Virus record (IMG/VR): IMGVR_UViG_3300032323_003835
Coordinates: 1-64,000 of that record
DNA length: 64,000 nucleotides
Reading direction: 5' to 3' (one strand)
DNA from: a virus
A program made the position numbers and the translations under genes. Below, one piece after another: positions 9,131 through 23,699 of the stretch; the stretch's first letter is position 1, and each line of letters opens with the position of its first letter. The notes beneath the pieces are model-generated. The model worked only from the letters and a program-made list of their open reading frames with translations, ran no database searches and had not been told where the DNA came from.

Positions 9131-10576
9131 ATGTCAAAAGAACTAATAGAATGGAGGGAAAAAAACCTCAATAAGATAAGCAAGAGTTTTTGTGCTGCTA
9201 AGTGGTATAATGCTAGTATACATCTTGGTCATGGATACACAGGATCGTGTCATCTACCTCTTCCACATCCTATAGATCTTGAGGAAATAAAAACCAATCC
9301 GTCTGCAATCCACAATACGAAGCATAAAAAGCAGATGAGAAAAATGATGCTAAGCGGTATTAGACCAGCTGAATGTTCATATTGCTGGAAAATAGAAGAC
9401 ATAGGTAGAAATAATGTTTCTGATAGGGTTTATAAGAGCATCATTTATGACGAGGACGATATTGCTAAGATAGAAGAAATGGATTACAGAGATAATGTTC
9501 TCCTTAAAACTCTAGAGATAAGCTTTGATCGAACTTGCAATTTTGCTTGTAGCTATTGTAACGCTGGATACAGTACCACATGGGGCAAGGAAATCCAAAA
9601 GTTCGGACCTTACCAAAAAATGAAAACAGACTCTGCTGGTGCTTACAGAAGCGATGGATCATGGTCTGAGGTATTTGGAAAACATAACGAAAGAAATCCA
9701 TTCGTCCAGGCATTTTTTGAATGGTGGCCGGAATTATCAGAGACTCTGGAAGAGATTAGAATTACCGGGGGAGAACCCTCATTAAGTCATAATTTTTGGG
9801 ATTTTATAGAAGTTCTTAAATCTAATCCAGCACCAAATCTAAGACTTGCTGTTAATTCAAATCTTGGGATGTCTGAACAAACCTTAGAAAAGATGGTGGA
9901 CATGTCGCATAATATGAGAATTAAGGAAATGGACATCTACACTAGCAATGAATCATACGGAAAACATGCGGAGTATATTAGGGATGGTCTAGTTTATGAT
10001 AAGTGGAGAAGTAATTTAGTTAGTCTAATAGAAAGATCCAAATTAAGATCACTAACAATAATGATGACAATTAATAGCTTATGTCTATTTAGCATCACAG
10101 ATTTTCTAGATGATATGATTGTATTGAAAAAGAGATATGGTGCGAATAAGCCAAACGTGGATCTTAATATCCTGAGATGGCCAGCATTCATGTCTCCTGT
10201 AGCACTACCTGATGAAATCAAATTGGAATTACATTCGAGATTAACAAAATGGTTCAACGAAAAAATGACACCCAATCTATTCAGCGTTGGTGAATTTGCA
10301 CAATTTCAAAGACTACTAGATTATATCCAGGTGGTAGAAAAAGGACACACTACAACAGAAGATGATAAATCAATACTGCACCACGATTTTAAAAGTTTCT
10401 ATGTACAGTATGATAGCAGAAGGGGTAAAAACTTTAAAGAAACATTCCCAGAATTAGCGGAATGGTACGAATCTATAAAGGTAGATCAGTCTATTCCAGT
10501 TGTTAATTTAAACGACGGAAGGATAACCCACTTCGAAACCGGAACTTATCCATATCCGCCTTCCAAAATTATATAA
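9131..10576 (+). CDS. radical SAM enzyme (paralog of 7170..8555)
   Basis: CNFACSYC, ITGGEP, CAAKW, ECSYCW; many shared blocks (NPSAxHNT, EWWP). Confidence 0.9.
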   Translation: MSKELIEWREKNLNKISKSFCAAKWYNASIHLGHGYTGSCHLPLPHPIDLEEIKTNPSAIHNTKHKKQMRKMMLSGIRPAECSYCWKIEDIGRNNVSDRVYKSIIYDEDDIAKIEEMDYRDNVLLKTLEISFDRTCNFACSYCNAGYSTTWGKEIQKFGPYQKMKTDSAGAYRSDGSWSEVFGKHNERNPFVQAFFEWWPELSETLEEIRITGGEPSLSHNFWDFIEVLKSNPAPNLRLAVNSNLGMSEQTLEKMVDMSHNMRIKEMDIYTSNESYGKHAEYIRDGLVYDKWRSNLVSLIERSKLRSLTIMMTINSLCLFSITDFLDDMIVLKKRYGANKPNVDLNILRWPAFMSPVALPDEIKLELHSRLTKWFNEKMTPNLFSVGEFAQFQRLLDYIQVVEKGHTTTEDDKSILHHDFKSFYVQYDSRRGKNFKETFPELAEWYESIKVDQSIPVVNLNDGRITHFETGTYPYPPSKII

Positions 10577-11474
10577 GAGATTTTACCTTTTTTGGTTGTA
10601 CTTCTATATTATTCTCGGATTCTAATTCTTTTGTATAAACAGGAGAATTAGAATCTTTTTCGTTTTGAATGTCCTTTTCTATAGAATCAATTACTGCTTT
10701 CGCCATAATTTCGTGACACTCTTTAGATGGGTGATGATCTTTTGGCGGATTTTCAAAATTATCATAATCTGAATTGATCGTTAAATGTCTATGTTTATCC
10801 ATTAGTTGTCTTATGGATGGAAAAATCCCATCTCTGTATTTAAGCGGGATAAATCTATTGTACATGAATATGTCATTAGATATTAGATCTAGATAATCAT
10901 CCTCCCAACAAAGAATTTTAGTTTTAATGTTATTTTCCTCAAGAAAAAGCATTATATCCTTTACGTTATTGAAGCAGTACTCTAGATGTTCATTTCTCCA
11001 CTGTTCTATAGATATGTTCCTTTCTTCGATGAGCCATTCATAAAAATCGGATTTGCTTTCCTGATCAAATATTAGAAATTTACAATCCTTTCCCTTAAAA
11101 TTATAATGGAAAGAATTTCTATTTGGTTGTGAGGTCTGTATAATAACATATTCTATTTCACTAAAATCAAATTTCTCGTCTATCAAATGCCCGTACCCAT
11201 TTAACAGTCCTAACGCTGACTTGATATAATTAATAGATGTTTCCTCGGATCCACCATTTTGTTTGGATGTTACCTCCCATGTATTGAAATGGTTTGCAAC
11301 CAATCTAGGATATCTTAGTGTTGACATGTACCTAACGTGTGCATCGGTTACTAGTCTTGAATCGTATGCATCAGGTGCAGGGTATTTTATAGTTTCTAGC
11401 CCAGAGTAATAATAGAGACCCTGTCCCCAGGTAAATGAGCATCCAGCAAAAATTAATCCTTTCATATTATTCAA
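10569..11474 (-). CDS. SGNH/GDSL-like hydrolase or acyltransferase
   Basis: GCSFTWG at N-terminus, DHHPS (DxxH) at C-terminus; ends KKVKSLI. Confidence 0.65.
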   Translation of the reverse strand: MNNMKGLIFAGCSFTWGQGLYYYSGLETIKYPAPDAYDSRLVTDAHVRYMSTLRYPRLVANHFNTWEVTSKQNGGSEETSINYIKSALGLLNGYGHLIDEKFDFSEIEYVIIQTSQPNRNSFHYNFKGKDCKFLIFDQESKSDFYEWLIEERNISIEQWRNEHLEYCFNNVKDIMLFLEENNIKTKILCWEDDYLDLISNDIFMYNRFIPLKYRDGIFPSIRQLMDKHRHLTINSDYDNFENPPKDHHPSKECHEIMAKAVIDSIEKDIQNEKDSNSPVYTKELESENNIEVQPKKVKSLI

Positions 11475-12441
11475 ATTCTTTTTTATTTTCTAGATACCAG
11501 CGATATGCATTAAAAAGACCTTCTTCTAGCGTAGTCTTTGCTTCCCATCCTAATTCACTTTTAATTTTATTAGAATCTATTTTTCTTGTAGGAATCATTG
11601 ACGGTTTTCCACTGATGAATTCCGTTGGTGCATTATGATCAGCTATTTTTTTCATTTTTTCTAGAACCTCTAAAACTGAATATACAGTATTAGATCCAAC
11701 GTTATATATGTTAAACATTTCTTTCTCTTTTTCCATCACTGTCTGTAGAGCCTCTACAAAATCTTCTATATAAAGAAGGTCCCTAAGCTCTGATCCATCT
11801 CCCCAAACAGGTATTGGATCCATTCGATCTGCTACTTTTCGTATAGTTGCTGGGGTAACGTGACATTTGTTGAAATCGTATTTGTCATGAGGTCCAAATA
11901 AATTTGCTGGTCTTATTACAGTGCATTTCATTTTAGTTGGAAGATACTTAGCATAGAGTTCACATTGAACCTCTGCATATCTTTTCATCCAACCTACAGG
12001 AAAATAAACGGGGTATGGTTCATCAAACAGGAAATCTGTCTCAACAACCGGTGTATCTCCCTTTGGTGGATAAACAGTATTCGAAGAAATGAAGATATAA
12101 TGCTGAACTTTATTTCTCCATGCTGCATCTATCAGGAAATTATTCATAGCTACATTCGGGGTAACGTGTGCTAGTGGATCAACAACAGTATCAACCGCAT
12201 TTGAAGTTGAAGCTGCTGCGTGTATCACAACATCAACATCTATCGTTGCAGTCACACATTCATCATGTTTTTGTAAATTGTAATAGGTGTAATCAACACT
12301 ATCATGAACTTGTCTAACACCTCTTCTATGAAGATTTACCCTTAAATCTGTGTATCCTTCTTTAACTAGTCTATTAGTTAAATTCTGTCCAACCAATCCG
12401 GATCCACCGGTGATTAAAATCCTTGAATCTTTGTTTATCAT
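11467..12441 (-). CDS. NAD-dependent epimerase/reductase (GDP-L-fucose synthase-like)
   Basis: TGGSGLVG, RPANLFGP, WGDGSELRD. Confidence 0.88.
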   Translation of the reverse strand: MINKDSRILITGGSGLVGQNLTNRLVKEGYTDLRVNLHRRGVRQVHDSVDYTYYNLQKHDECVTATIDVDVVIHAAASTSNAVDTVVDPLAHVTPNVAMNNFLIDAAWRNKVQHYIFISSNTVYPPKGDTPVVETDFLFDEPYPVYFPVGWMKRYAEVQCELYAKYLPTKMKCTVIRPANLFGPHDKYDFNKCHVTPATIRKVADRMDPIPVWGDGSELRDLLYIEDFVEALQTVMEKEKEMFNIYNVGSNTVYSVLEVLEKMKKIADHNAPTEFISGKPSMIPTRKIDSNKIKSELGWEAKTTLEEGLFNAYRWYLENKKEFE

Positions 12442-23033: not shown

Positions 23034-23132
23034 ATAATGTTTGTTTTACGTATTATCCATCATGGTTACCAAACAATGTGGAATTAAGTGAAATCACATT
23101 AAAAGAATTTTTAGAGAAAAATATTGATTTTT

Positions 23133-23699
23133 ATGAAAATACTTCTTCTGTGCGAACCTAGGAGCGGATCCACTAATTTAGCAAATTGGTTTATTTGTAA
23201 TAAAGATTTCACAGTCTTACAGGAGCCTTTAAACAAAAATGGATTAGATTACAAAAAAGGAATATCCCCTAGAGAATGGGAATATACCACGGATCATTTT
23301 CTAATTAAAGAAATATATGTACCTAACGCCAATCTGGTGGACCTTATTAATCTAGCGGATAAAATAATTTTACTATATAGGGAAAAAGTCGAAGAACAAA
23401 TCGAATCATGGTTGGTTGCTTCTCAAACAAATCAGTGGTCTTCTGAATGGGCAAGTGGTCGTATTGTAATAACGCGAGAAGATGATAAAATTAATTATTT
23501 TAGATCCCTAAAGAGTGGATTTAAAAACGATTACCTGGATAACCAAGATTTTTTTAGCATCTCGTACGAGGAGCTATACAATGGTAACGGTATTGAAAAA
23601 GTTATTGATTACCTAAATATAGATACACTAGAAAATAAAAATTTTCCATACGGTAAAAAATATAAACTAGAACCAATTAAACCGACAAGATTGATATGA
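23133..23699 (+). CDS. sulfotransferase (Stf0-like)
   Basis: EPRSGST, QEP, LYRE..EQIES, SYEELY; ATG start chosen at 23133; ends PTRLI. Confidence 0.75.
   Translation: MKILLLCEPRSGSTNLANWFICNKDFTVLQEPLNKNGLDYKKGISPREWEYTTDHFLIKEIYVPNANLVDLINLADKIILLYREKVEEQIESWLVASQTNQWSSEWASGRIVITREDDKINYFRSLKSGFKNDYLDNQDFFSISYEELYNGNGIEKVIDYLNIDTLENKNFPYGKKYKLEPIKPTRLI

Follow-up and report, generated by a model that had tools for sequence, protein, structure and literature searches.

A shared C-terminal K-[ST]-L-[IL] tail on unrelated tailoring enzymes of a large phage and its coupling to an ATP-grasp–Hint fusion gene

Short motifs at the extreme C-terminus of proteins serve as recognition signals in several described systems. 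Class I PDZ domains bind ligands of the form x-[ST]-x-hydrophobic-COOH, whereas the type 1 peroxisomal targeting signal (PTS1), a eukaryotic organelle import signal that needs its free carboxylate, is read by the TPR domain of Pex5. In pathways for peptides that are made by ribosomes and modified after translation (RiPPs) several tailoring enzymes act on one precursor, and recognition of its leader, including the large structured leaders of the NHLP and Nif11 types, has been described (PMC12537861, PMC10858898). In the present work, we analyzed a short C-terminal tail, referred to below as the tag, which is shared by tailoring enzymes of unrelated families encoded in a virus contig from metagenomic data (IMG/VR record IMGVR_UViG_3300032323_003835; 111,205 bp, 33% complete according to CheckV). 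The window, i.e., the whole stretch of DNA under study, comprises the first 64,000 nt of this record. The tag, of the form K-[ST]-L-[IL], proved to be real, strongly selected and widespread, occurring in hundreds of relatives of this virus, and it appears not to have been described before. The main new result is its quantitative coupling to a gene encoding a fusion of an ATP-grasp domain, a Hint domain and a putative core peptide.

The shared C-terminal tail

The preliminary description of this DNA had listed nine similar C-termini in the window, and all nine were found in the sequence. Genes are named here as they were there, by the start of the gene on the plus strand and by the end at the stop codon on the minus strand. 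A strict K-[ST]-[LI]-[LI] end was confirmed for six proteins of different folds, all encoded at 10.5–23 kb, four of them on the plus strand (20717, 21260, 21843, and 22302) and two on the minus strand (10569 and 16543). Of the 191 open reading frames (ORFs) in the record (greedy ORFs of the 111,205 bp), six end in K[ST][LI][LI] against 0.08 expected from the internal frequency of this motif, 4.0e-4 per position (binomial P 2.5e-10). The claim that the tag is confined to the island of modification genes, which occupies 2.5–26 kb of the window, also held: the strict tail is present in 6/27 ORFs inside this interval and in 0/164 outside (Fisher 4.8e-6), and the looser [LI][LI]-COOH end in 10/27 and 5/164 ORFs, respectively. 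The strict pattern had been picked post hoc; independent replication came from a second contig of 104 kb (31% complete), in which the tagged genes likewise cluster beside its ATP-grasp–Hint gene, and from 106 related loci.

These loci, whose marker proteins showed 36–89% identity, came from IMG/VR contigs with lengths up to 334 kb. Approximately half of the genes in each locus end in two aliphatic residues, and the tag was present on at least 12 unrelated families, on both strands and in various downstream contexts. For the family counts a protein was considered tagged when a polar or Pro residue was followed by two terminal aliphatic residues, and distinct members were counted. The tag was carried by 118 of 127 oxygenases resembling prolyl 4-hydroxylases (P4H-like), 83 of 84 sulfotransferase-like proteins, all 55 members of the Cys-rich family of 21843, 46 of 47 members of a second 2-oxoglutarate (2OG)-dependent oxygenase-like family, 20 of 23 members of a radical S-adenosylmethionine (SAM) family, and all 18 members of a family of 426-aa proteins. 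The 14 distinct members of the 20717 family all end in K[ST][LI][LIV], and the flavin-dependent Trp halogenase (PF04820, E 2.7e-84) ends in two aliphatic residues in 20/20 cases. A tagged family was also assigned as GDSL-like, weakly, below the Pfam cut-off. Different C-termini were found in families that are mostly untagged in the same operons, namely adenosine 5'-phosphosulfate (APS) kinase (tagged in 2/32), a nucleotidyltransferase-like protein (0/38), DUF2061 (0/32), carbamoyltransferase, and epimerases. Untagged families of the same loci end in K, R, G, or Y and not in L-I. The tailoring families are tagged, whereas the untagged ones supply 3'-phosphoadenosine 5'-phosphosulfate (PAPS) or nucleoside diphosphate (NDP)-sugars, which are diffusible cofactors. 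Among isolated phages (50,697 records) no nucleotide match was detected, and no protein match to the sulfotransferase-like gene.

The family-weighted profile showed K (0.67) or N (0.18) at position −3, S (0.30), T (0.28), K (0.16), or N (0.14) at −2, L (0.75) or I (0.19) at −1, and I (0.67), L (0.22), or F (0.06) at the last position, designated 0, with a K-rich stretch covering −3 to −6. Measured against this consensus (K/N, S/T/K/N, L/I, I/L/F), the search pattern of the preliminary description was too narrow. Three of the listed ends had been regarded there as weaker cases, and they fared differently. KPTRLI belongs to a true variant, with 50 of the 54 distinct members of the 23124 family tagged. 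PPSKII of the 9131 radical SAM family is a plausible one, 11–12 of 23 members being tagged with ends of the form [KT]K[LI][LI]. NKQII of 12442 stayed ambiguous, and the epimerase family is seldom tagged. The SGII end of 14019 is ambiguous as well; the family of this 831-aa protein always ends in GII.

The tails of the six strictly tagged window genes are written with different codons (TCT/TCC/TCA, CTT/CTC/TTA, and ATA/TTA/TTG/CTT), all three stop codons are used, and the sequences downstream have nothing in common. In orthologues the residues remained unchanged while Leu was encoded by CTT, CTC, CTA, or TTA, Thr by ACA, ACT, or ACG, and the stop was TAA, TAG, or TGA. Since codons and stops vary synonymously while the residues hold, selection acts on the tail as a peptide and not as DNA. 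A terminator, promoter, or coupling element as a DNA-level cause was rejected in view of the different codons, stops, and downstream contexts. AT-rich codon bias, which the preliminary description had raised as a possible trivial cause, was ruled out by the varied tail codons together with the K/R/G/Y ends of the untagged families.

The tail was kept in orthologues and not lost at random, the other doubt raised at the outset, as observed for the sulfotransferase-like, P4H-like, and 10569 families. Approximately 115 of 120 sulfotransferase-like homologues, down to 42% identity, end in K-[TS]-[LIFM]-[LIVF]; conservation reaches 90% or more at K240 and T241, and positions −5 to −8 are variable. 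In the AlphaFold2 (AF2) model of this protein (mean predicted local distance difference test score, pLDDT, 91) the last helix spans residues 220–234, and residues 235–243 form a coil with pLDDT 53–68. Cluster representatives close to the P4H-like protein of the window have an extension of about 12 residues ending in KK[TS]L[LI]; distant ones stop straight after the last strand, RYSLVxWVxGPxF[KR], and lack the tail. Matches of the P4H-like gene to oxygenases of cyanophages, pelagiphages, and Methylophilales phages likewise stop at about residue 180 of 193, before the tail. The 10569 orthologues carry a linker of about 30 aa, too divergent for tblastn, followed by PKRLI, and the 10569 paralogues end just past the last helix with neither linker nor tag. 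The Cys-rich 21843 family also has a variable linker followed by the tag (alignment A3). Altogether, the alignments and the structural model indicate that the tail is a disordered add-on placed beyond the catalytic folds of unrelated enzymes and absent from their distant homologues.

The ATP-grasp–Hint fusion and its tagged neighbours

The fusion gene was found in 93 of the 106 loci and was never tagged. In the 14 loci without it (13 related loci and one duplicate), the sequence breaks off where the gene would lie or represents a different stretch of the island. The gene lies inside the run of tagged genes, and the tagged Cys-rich gene nearly always adjoins it. For 60 non-redundant loci we determined what fraction of genes ends in two aliphatic residues at a given distance from the fusion gene. 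It reached 0.85–0.98 at positions +1 to +4 and 0.59–0.86 at −1 to −4, was 0/60 for the fusion gene itself, and dropped to approximately 0.26 from a distance of 12 genes on. The minimal modules (L045, L050, and L060) combine the fusion gene with one tagged Cys-rich and one tagged sulfotransferase-like gene.

The AF2 model of the fusion protein (pLDDT 82) was compared with known structures using Foldseek. The C-terminal half matched BIL2, (mini-)intein, and Hedgehog autoprocessing Hint domains (E ~1e-6), and the N-terminal half matched (homo)glutathione synthetases of the eukaryotic type as well as YgiC/YjfC of E. coli, which are GspS-like (E 3e-5 to 1e-4). Glutathione synthetase and GspS-like ATP-grasp ligases have short peptides as substrates, whose C-terminal carboxylate they activate. 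Residues E22 and N24 and the terminal H459-N460 of the Hint domain are invariant in 48 sequences, down to 25% identity, and E22 and N24 likely form the Mg-binding pair. The Hint nucleophile at position 1 appears to be absent from the fusion protein. The segment after HN is 28–45 aa long and hypervariable, as seen in the window gene and in loci L045–L106; Cys, Trp, Tyr, Gly, and Pro are abundant in it, as in C-W-C-P-W-x-Y-C-G-x-W-C. In one clade the core peptides end in PPKL, KI, or KF, loosely resembling the enzyme tag, and the Trp halogenase occurs mainly with that clade. A longer form of the fusion, of about 640 aa, was noted in L042, L043, L053, L059, L067, L071, L082, L095, and L099; in this clade the terminal His-Asn was not found within the last 70 residues.

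The fusion family comprises at least 783 protein clusters, all of them metagenomic and without Pfam domains. A pattern scan of 185,579 species genomes found no ATP-grasp–Hint relatives, and no published account of either the tag or the fusion family turned up in full-text searches of the literature.

The modification island and its surroundings

The virus is a very large, uncultured aquatic phage, its size being indicated by related IMG/VR contigs of 287–334 kb; all of its Atlas neighbours belong to Uroviricota, i.e., phages of prokaryotes. The island contains two GT7-like glycosyltransferases, three radical SAM enzymes, and two NDP-sugar epimerase-like genes, a trio of genes for PAPS supply, and the fusion gene, followed by a 29-aa ORF and a run of small enzymes (Table 1). 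The HxGH motif of the 125-aa protein encoded at 18441 was read from the translation and marks a probable nucleotidyltransferase; DUF2061 is a small membrane protein. The 29-aa ORF follows the pattern MAxIIxNTEINTLNTT..TIGxLI..ANS and was found in 10 distinct versions in the related loci. The model of the sulfotransferase-like protein 22302 gave weak Foldseek matches, nearly all of them to PAPS sulfotransferases.

Table 1. Features of the modification island discussed in the text (window coordinates)
Position	Strand	Feature	C-terminus	Basis
9131..10576	+	twitch-domain radical SAM enzyme	PPSKII (weak tag)	NF033640, E 2.8e-91
10569..11474	−	301-aa protein, tag after a ~30-aa low-complexity linker	KKVKSLI	translation and orthologue comparison
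12442..16514	−	epimerase–2OG fusion (12442) and 831-aa protein (14019)	NKQII and SGII, both ambiguous	family comparison
16543..17769	−	radical SAM/SPASM enzyme	NTKSLI	PF04055 and PF13186
18007..19055	+	cofactor-supply genes: APS kinase (18007), 125-aa HxGH protein (18441), DUF2061 (18837)	untagged	Pfam for APS kinase and DUF2061
19075..20577	+	500-aa ATP-grasp–Hint–core-peptide fusion	untagged	AF2/Foldseek, family comparison
20605..20694	+	Thr-rich small ORF of 29 aa, separating the fusion gene from the first tagged gene		conserved in related loci
20717..21247	+	176-aa enzyme-sized protein, no Pfam family	KKTKSLL (tag codons 21233-21244)	translation, family
21260..21841	+	P4H-like 2OG-Fe(II) oxygenase, 193 aa	YKKTLL	PF13640, E 9.7e-14
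21843..22160	+	105-aa protein with six conserved Cys	KTKKTIL	alignment A3, gene order
22302..23033	+	sulfotransferase-like 243-aa protein	KINKTLL	homologues, AF2, Foldseek
23124..23699 (alternative start 23133)	+	191-aa protein, no Pfam family	KPTRLI (tag variant, R at −2)	family comparison

Several further C-termini in the record were noted. Two tandem paralogues of about 241 aa, encoded at window positions 39096-40549 on the minus strand, have the C-termini HKYGII and HKYGIL; their genes are located outside the island, and a relation to the tag is improbable. Another, small sugar island, at 63424-64000 of the window and 64–68 kb of the record, includes an epimerase and a dTDP-sugar-epimerase-like gene. 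Two of its proteins have the tag-like ends RFRNLI and YVKRLI, the latter being a paralogue of 23124. At 71790-77131 of the record, four adjoining genes (218–410 aa), at least two of them paralogues, all end in T-[LIA]-A-D-L-G-[ED]-L-G-F, a second common C-terminal ending in the same genome. A phage-encoded transfer-messenger RNA (tmRNA) is located at window positions 41-423 on the minus strand. Its tag peptide ends in GADYAVAA and was rejected as a model for the enzyme tail, from which the ADYAVAA end is dissimilar.

Related islands (L022:3146-3532, L042:16950-17585, and others) additionally encode Hsp20, peptide deformylase, an arginine-deiminase-like protein, and carbamoyltransferase, all untagged. 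Hsp20 was considered as a reader of the tag and rejected: it is present in 18 related loci and absent from the source record and the second contig (about a third of each genome), and its known ligand, IxI, is unlike L-I.

Docking as a probable function, its rivals and known systems

We consider a docking signal for tailoring enzymes the most probable function of the tag, with a probability of roughly 0.55. The tail would then be a short C-terminal recognition motif, in which K-[ST]-L-[IL]-COOH follows a K-rich linker and is exposed on a disordered extension. It would mark those enzymes that act directly on one macromolecular substrate, presumably the Cys/Trp/Tyr-rich peptide at the end of the fusion protein, which the terminal His-Asn of the Hint domain can probably set free. 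Small single-domain enzymes, such as hydroxylases, the sulfotransferase-like protein, radical SAM enzymes, and the halogenase, might in this way be docked onto a common partner and so brought to the same precursor. Most tagged enzymes are indeed single-domain proteins of 105–250 aa.

A Trp/Tyr-rich peptide placed behind a self-cleaving domain reads as part of a RiPP-like pathway, because the gene is flanked by those for a Trp halogenase, hydroxylases, a sulfotransferase-like protein with PAPS supply, and radical SAM enzymes. The preliminary description had proposed that an adaptor or scaffold recruits the enzymes into an assembly line working on a virion or a peptide. The gene context agrees with a peptide substrate, and nothing points to a virion; neither an adaptor nor a scaffold was identified. 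As the partner we favour, tentatively, the globular portion of the fusion protein. Its ATP-grasp half is a reasonable reader, because its relatives act on or bind peptide C-termini. An inverted recognition, in which the tag on each enzyme is read by the glutathione-synthetase-like ATP-grasp domain of a self-cleaving precursor, is more doubtful still. In such an arrangement, a newly captured enzyme could enter the pathway by gaining approximately 10 codons, and the Cys/Trp-rich peptide, once finished, might be ligated or cyclised in the same ATP-grasp pocket.

Several points weigh against docking on the fusion protein. No contact between tag and reader, physical or predicted, was obtained; the single complex prediction made, for the fusion protein (A2) with the Cys-rich 21843 protein (A3), gave a score of 0.18 and a mark of 0.32 and counts neither way. 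The genomic association would look no different with a fusion protein that served solely as substrate and tags that were read by something else. Tagged genes also occur several kb away or on the other strand (10569 and 16543, and 63–66 kb of the record), so the coupling is genomic and not strictly that of one operon. The ATP-grasp residues look catalytically intact, and this agrees with an active ligase no less than with a passive docking domain. Finally, the reader was searched for in about one-third of each of two genomes, and a reader encoded elsewhere or supplied by the host is equally open.

An active ligase leads to the idea that the tags are its substrates: the ATP-grasp domain would activate the K-[ST]-L-[IL] carboxylate and ligate it to an amine, an amino acid, or the N-terminus of the Hint-released peptide, thereby capping or tethering the enzymes. 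The resemblance of the N-terminal half to peptide-carboxylate ligases (glutathione synthetase, YgiC/YjfC), the invariance of the presumed Mg pair E22 and N24, the need for the motif to stand at the very C-terminus, and the K-[LIF]-COOH ends of the core peptides in one clade all agree with such a role. On the other hand, the covalent modification of about ten catalysts brings no obvious benefit, and the ligase could equally act on the core peptide, for example in cyclisation; we regard ligation of the tags as unlikely. A degradation or remodelling signal for a host AAA+ protease or unfoldase, which would limit the persistence of the enzymes during infection, seems improbable too. ClpX recognizes the RRKKAI-COOH end of MuA, and nonpolar C-termini destabilise proteins in E. 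coli; a free, disordered C-terminus with a basic stretch and then two aliphatic residues would fit this. Yet the contrast between tagged enzymes acting on the precursor and untagged, co-transcribed supply enzymes would be left unexplained, the near-invariant K at −3 and S/T at −2 are more specific than the known nonpolar degrons, and the tag added by the phage tmRNA is the classical ADYAVAA, unlike the tail.

The remaining explanations appear weaker. A weak membrane or polyanion anchor, gathering the enzymes at the inner membrane in the vicinity of DUF2061 or an exporter, could use the K-rich positions −3 to −6 followed by L-I, and the cluster does encode the DUF2061 membrane protein. However, a membrane-targeting helix needs more than two aliphatic residues, a strict C-terminal position with S/T at −2 would not be expected of a lipid anchor, and the presumed substrate protein has no such tail, which makes this reading quite improbable. 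Packaging into the capsid or another phage compartment, suggested solely by analogy with the C-terminal cargo peptides of HK97-fold encapsulins, is very improbable: the cytoplasm is where enzymes that depend on PAPS, SAM, 2-oxoglutarate, and reduced flavin are expected to work, the motif is unlike the encapsulin signal, and the tags cluster at the precursor gene and not at structural genes. A tail without function, produced by AT-rich composition, shared ancestry, or a constraint of termination and reinitiation, might have been suspected in a genome of about 34% GC with tightly packed genes; it was rejected in view of the 0.08 cases expected by chance, the synonymous codons and three stops, the spread over at least 12 unrelated families, and the different ends of untagged neighbours. 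Ligation, degradation, anchoring, and packaging each fit the split between tailoring and supply enzymes and the strict consensus less well than docking does.

If the tag is a docking label, it would provide viral peptide modification with a natural "plug-in" system, in which a compact, transferable element suffices to bring arbitrary enzymes to one substrate. The full enzyme set of a large, uncharacterised phage biosynthetic cluster could then be defined from sequence alone; in this cluster a Cys/Trp-rich peptide would be hydroxylated, halogenated, modified by radical chemistry, and sulfated, with PAPS supplied by the cluster itself. The pairing of a tag peptide with the fusion protein offers a direct experimental handle on the unannotated family of at least 783 clusters. 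The tag could also be reused in synthetic biology, with tailoring enzymes assembled on a scaffold.

Among described C-terminal signals, class I PDZ ligands are matched by the tag only in part, with an aliphatic last residue on a free, disordered C-terminus and, in the consensus, S/T at −2. It differs in position −1, variable in PDZ ligands and nearly fixed as L in the tag, and in that S/T occupies −2 in only about 58% of the family-weighted profile, K and N being also accepted. No match to the PDZ domains PF13180, PF17820, and PF00595 was found at E ≤ 1 in the source record (33% complete) or the second contig (31%), and a PDZ protein of the host might serve instead. With PTS1 the tag has in common a motif of 3–4 residues at the extreme C-terminus, combining basic and aliphatic residues and carried by unrelated enzymes of one set. 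It departs from the PTS1 tripeptide [SAC]-[KRH]-[LM]-COOH in that its basic residue precedes S/T (K-S/T-L-I versus S-K-L). The enzyme tails K-[ST]-L-[IL] do not conform to the ssrA-type degron recognised by ClpX/SspB ([YA]-A-L/V-A-A), and their composition is similar to that of the MuA-type ClpX signal (C-motif 2), basic and then aliphatic at the C-terminus. The tails that bind sliding clamps (PIP-box, QL[SD]LF; binders of T4/RB69 gp45) follow the same logic of one hub with many clients; the tag lacks the Gln and the aromatic residues of the QL[SD]LF/LxFxF motif, and nothing ties the tagged enzymes to DNA. The encapsulin cargo peptide, of the G-S-L type, also differs in consensus, and no shell-like gene was seen in the islands.

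The Hint domains of bacterial intein-like and Hedgehog proteins (e.g., BIL2 of the Tetrahymena BUBL locus, PDB 6y75) provide the best structural match to the C-terminal half of the fusion, including the invariant terminal His-Asn. This likeness concerns the candidate hub and not the tag. We know of no link between Hint domains and C-terminal tags.

A further parallel is offered by RiPP biosynthesis. As in the known systems, several tailoring enzymes co-occur with one ribosomal precursor that has a C-terminal core, here the Cys/Trp/Tyr-rich segment after the invariant HN, and a large structured N-terminal part. Scans against Pfam and NCBIfam, which did not include a dedicated search for RiPP recognition elements (RREs), found catalytic domains only and no peptide-binding domain in the tagged enzymes. 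In known RiPP pathways, the reader, an RRE or another surface, belongs to the enzyme and the signal to the precursor. In the system described here the short signal is carried by the enzymes, so the polarity of recognition would be inverted, and the part corresponding to the leader would be an ATP-grasp–Hint protein of about 460 aa.

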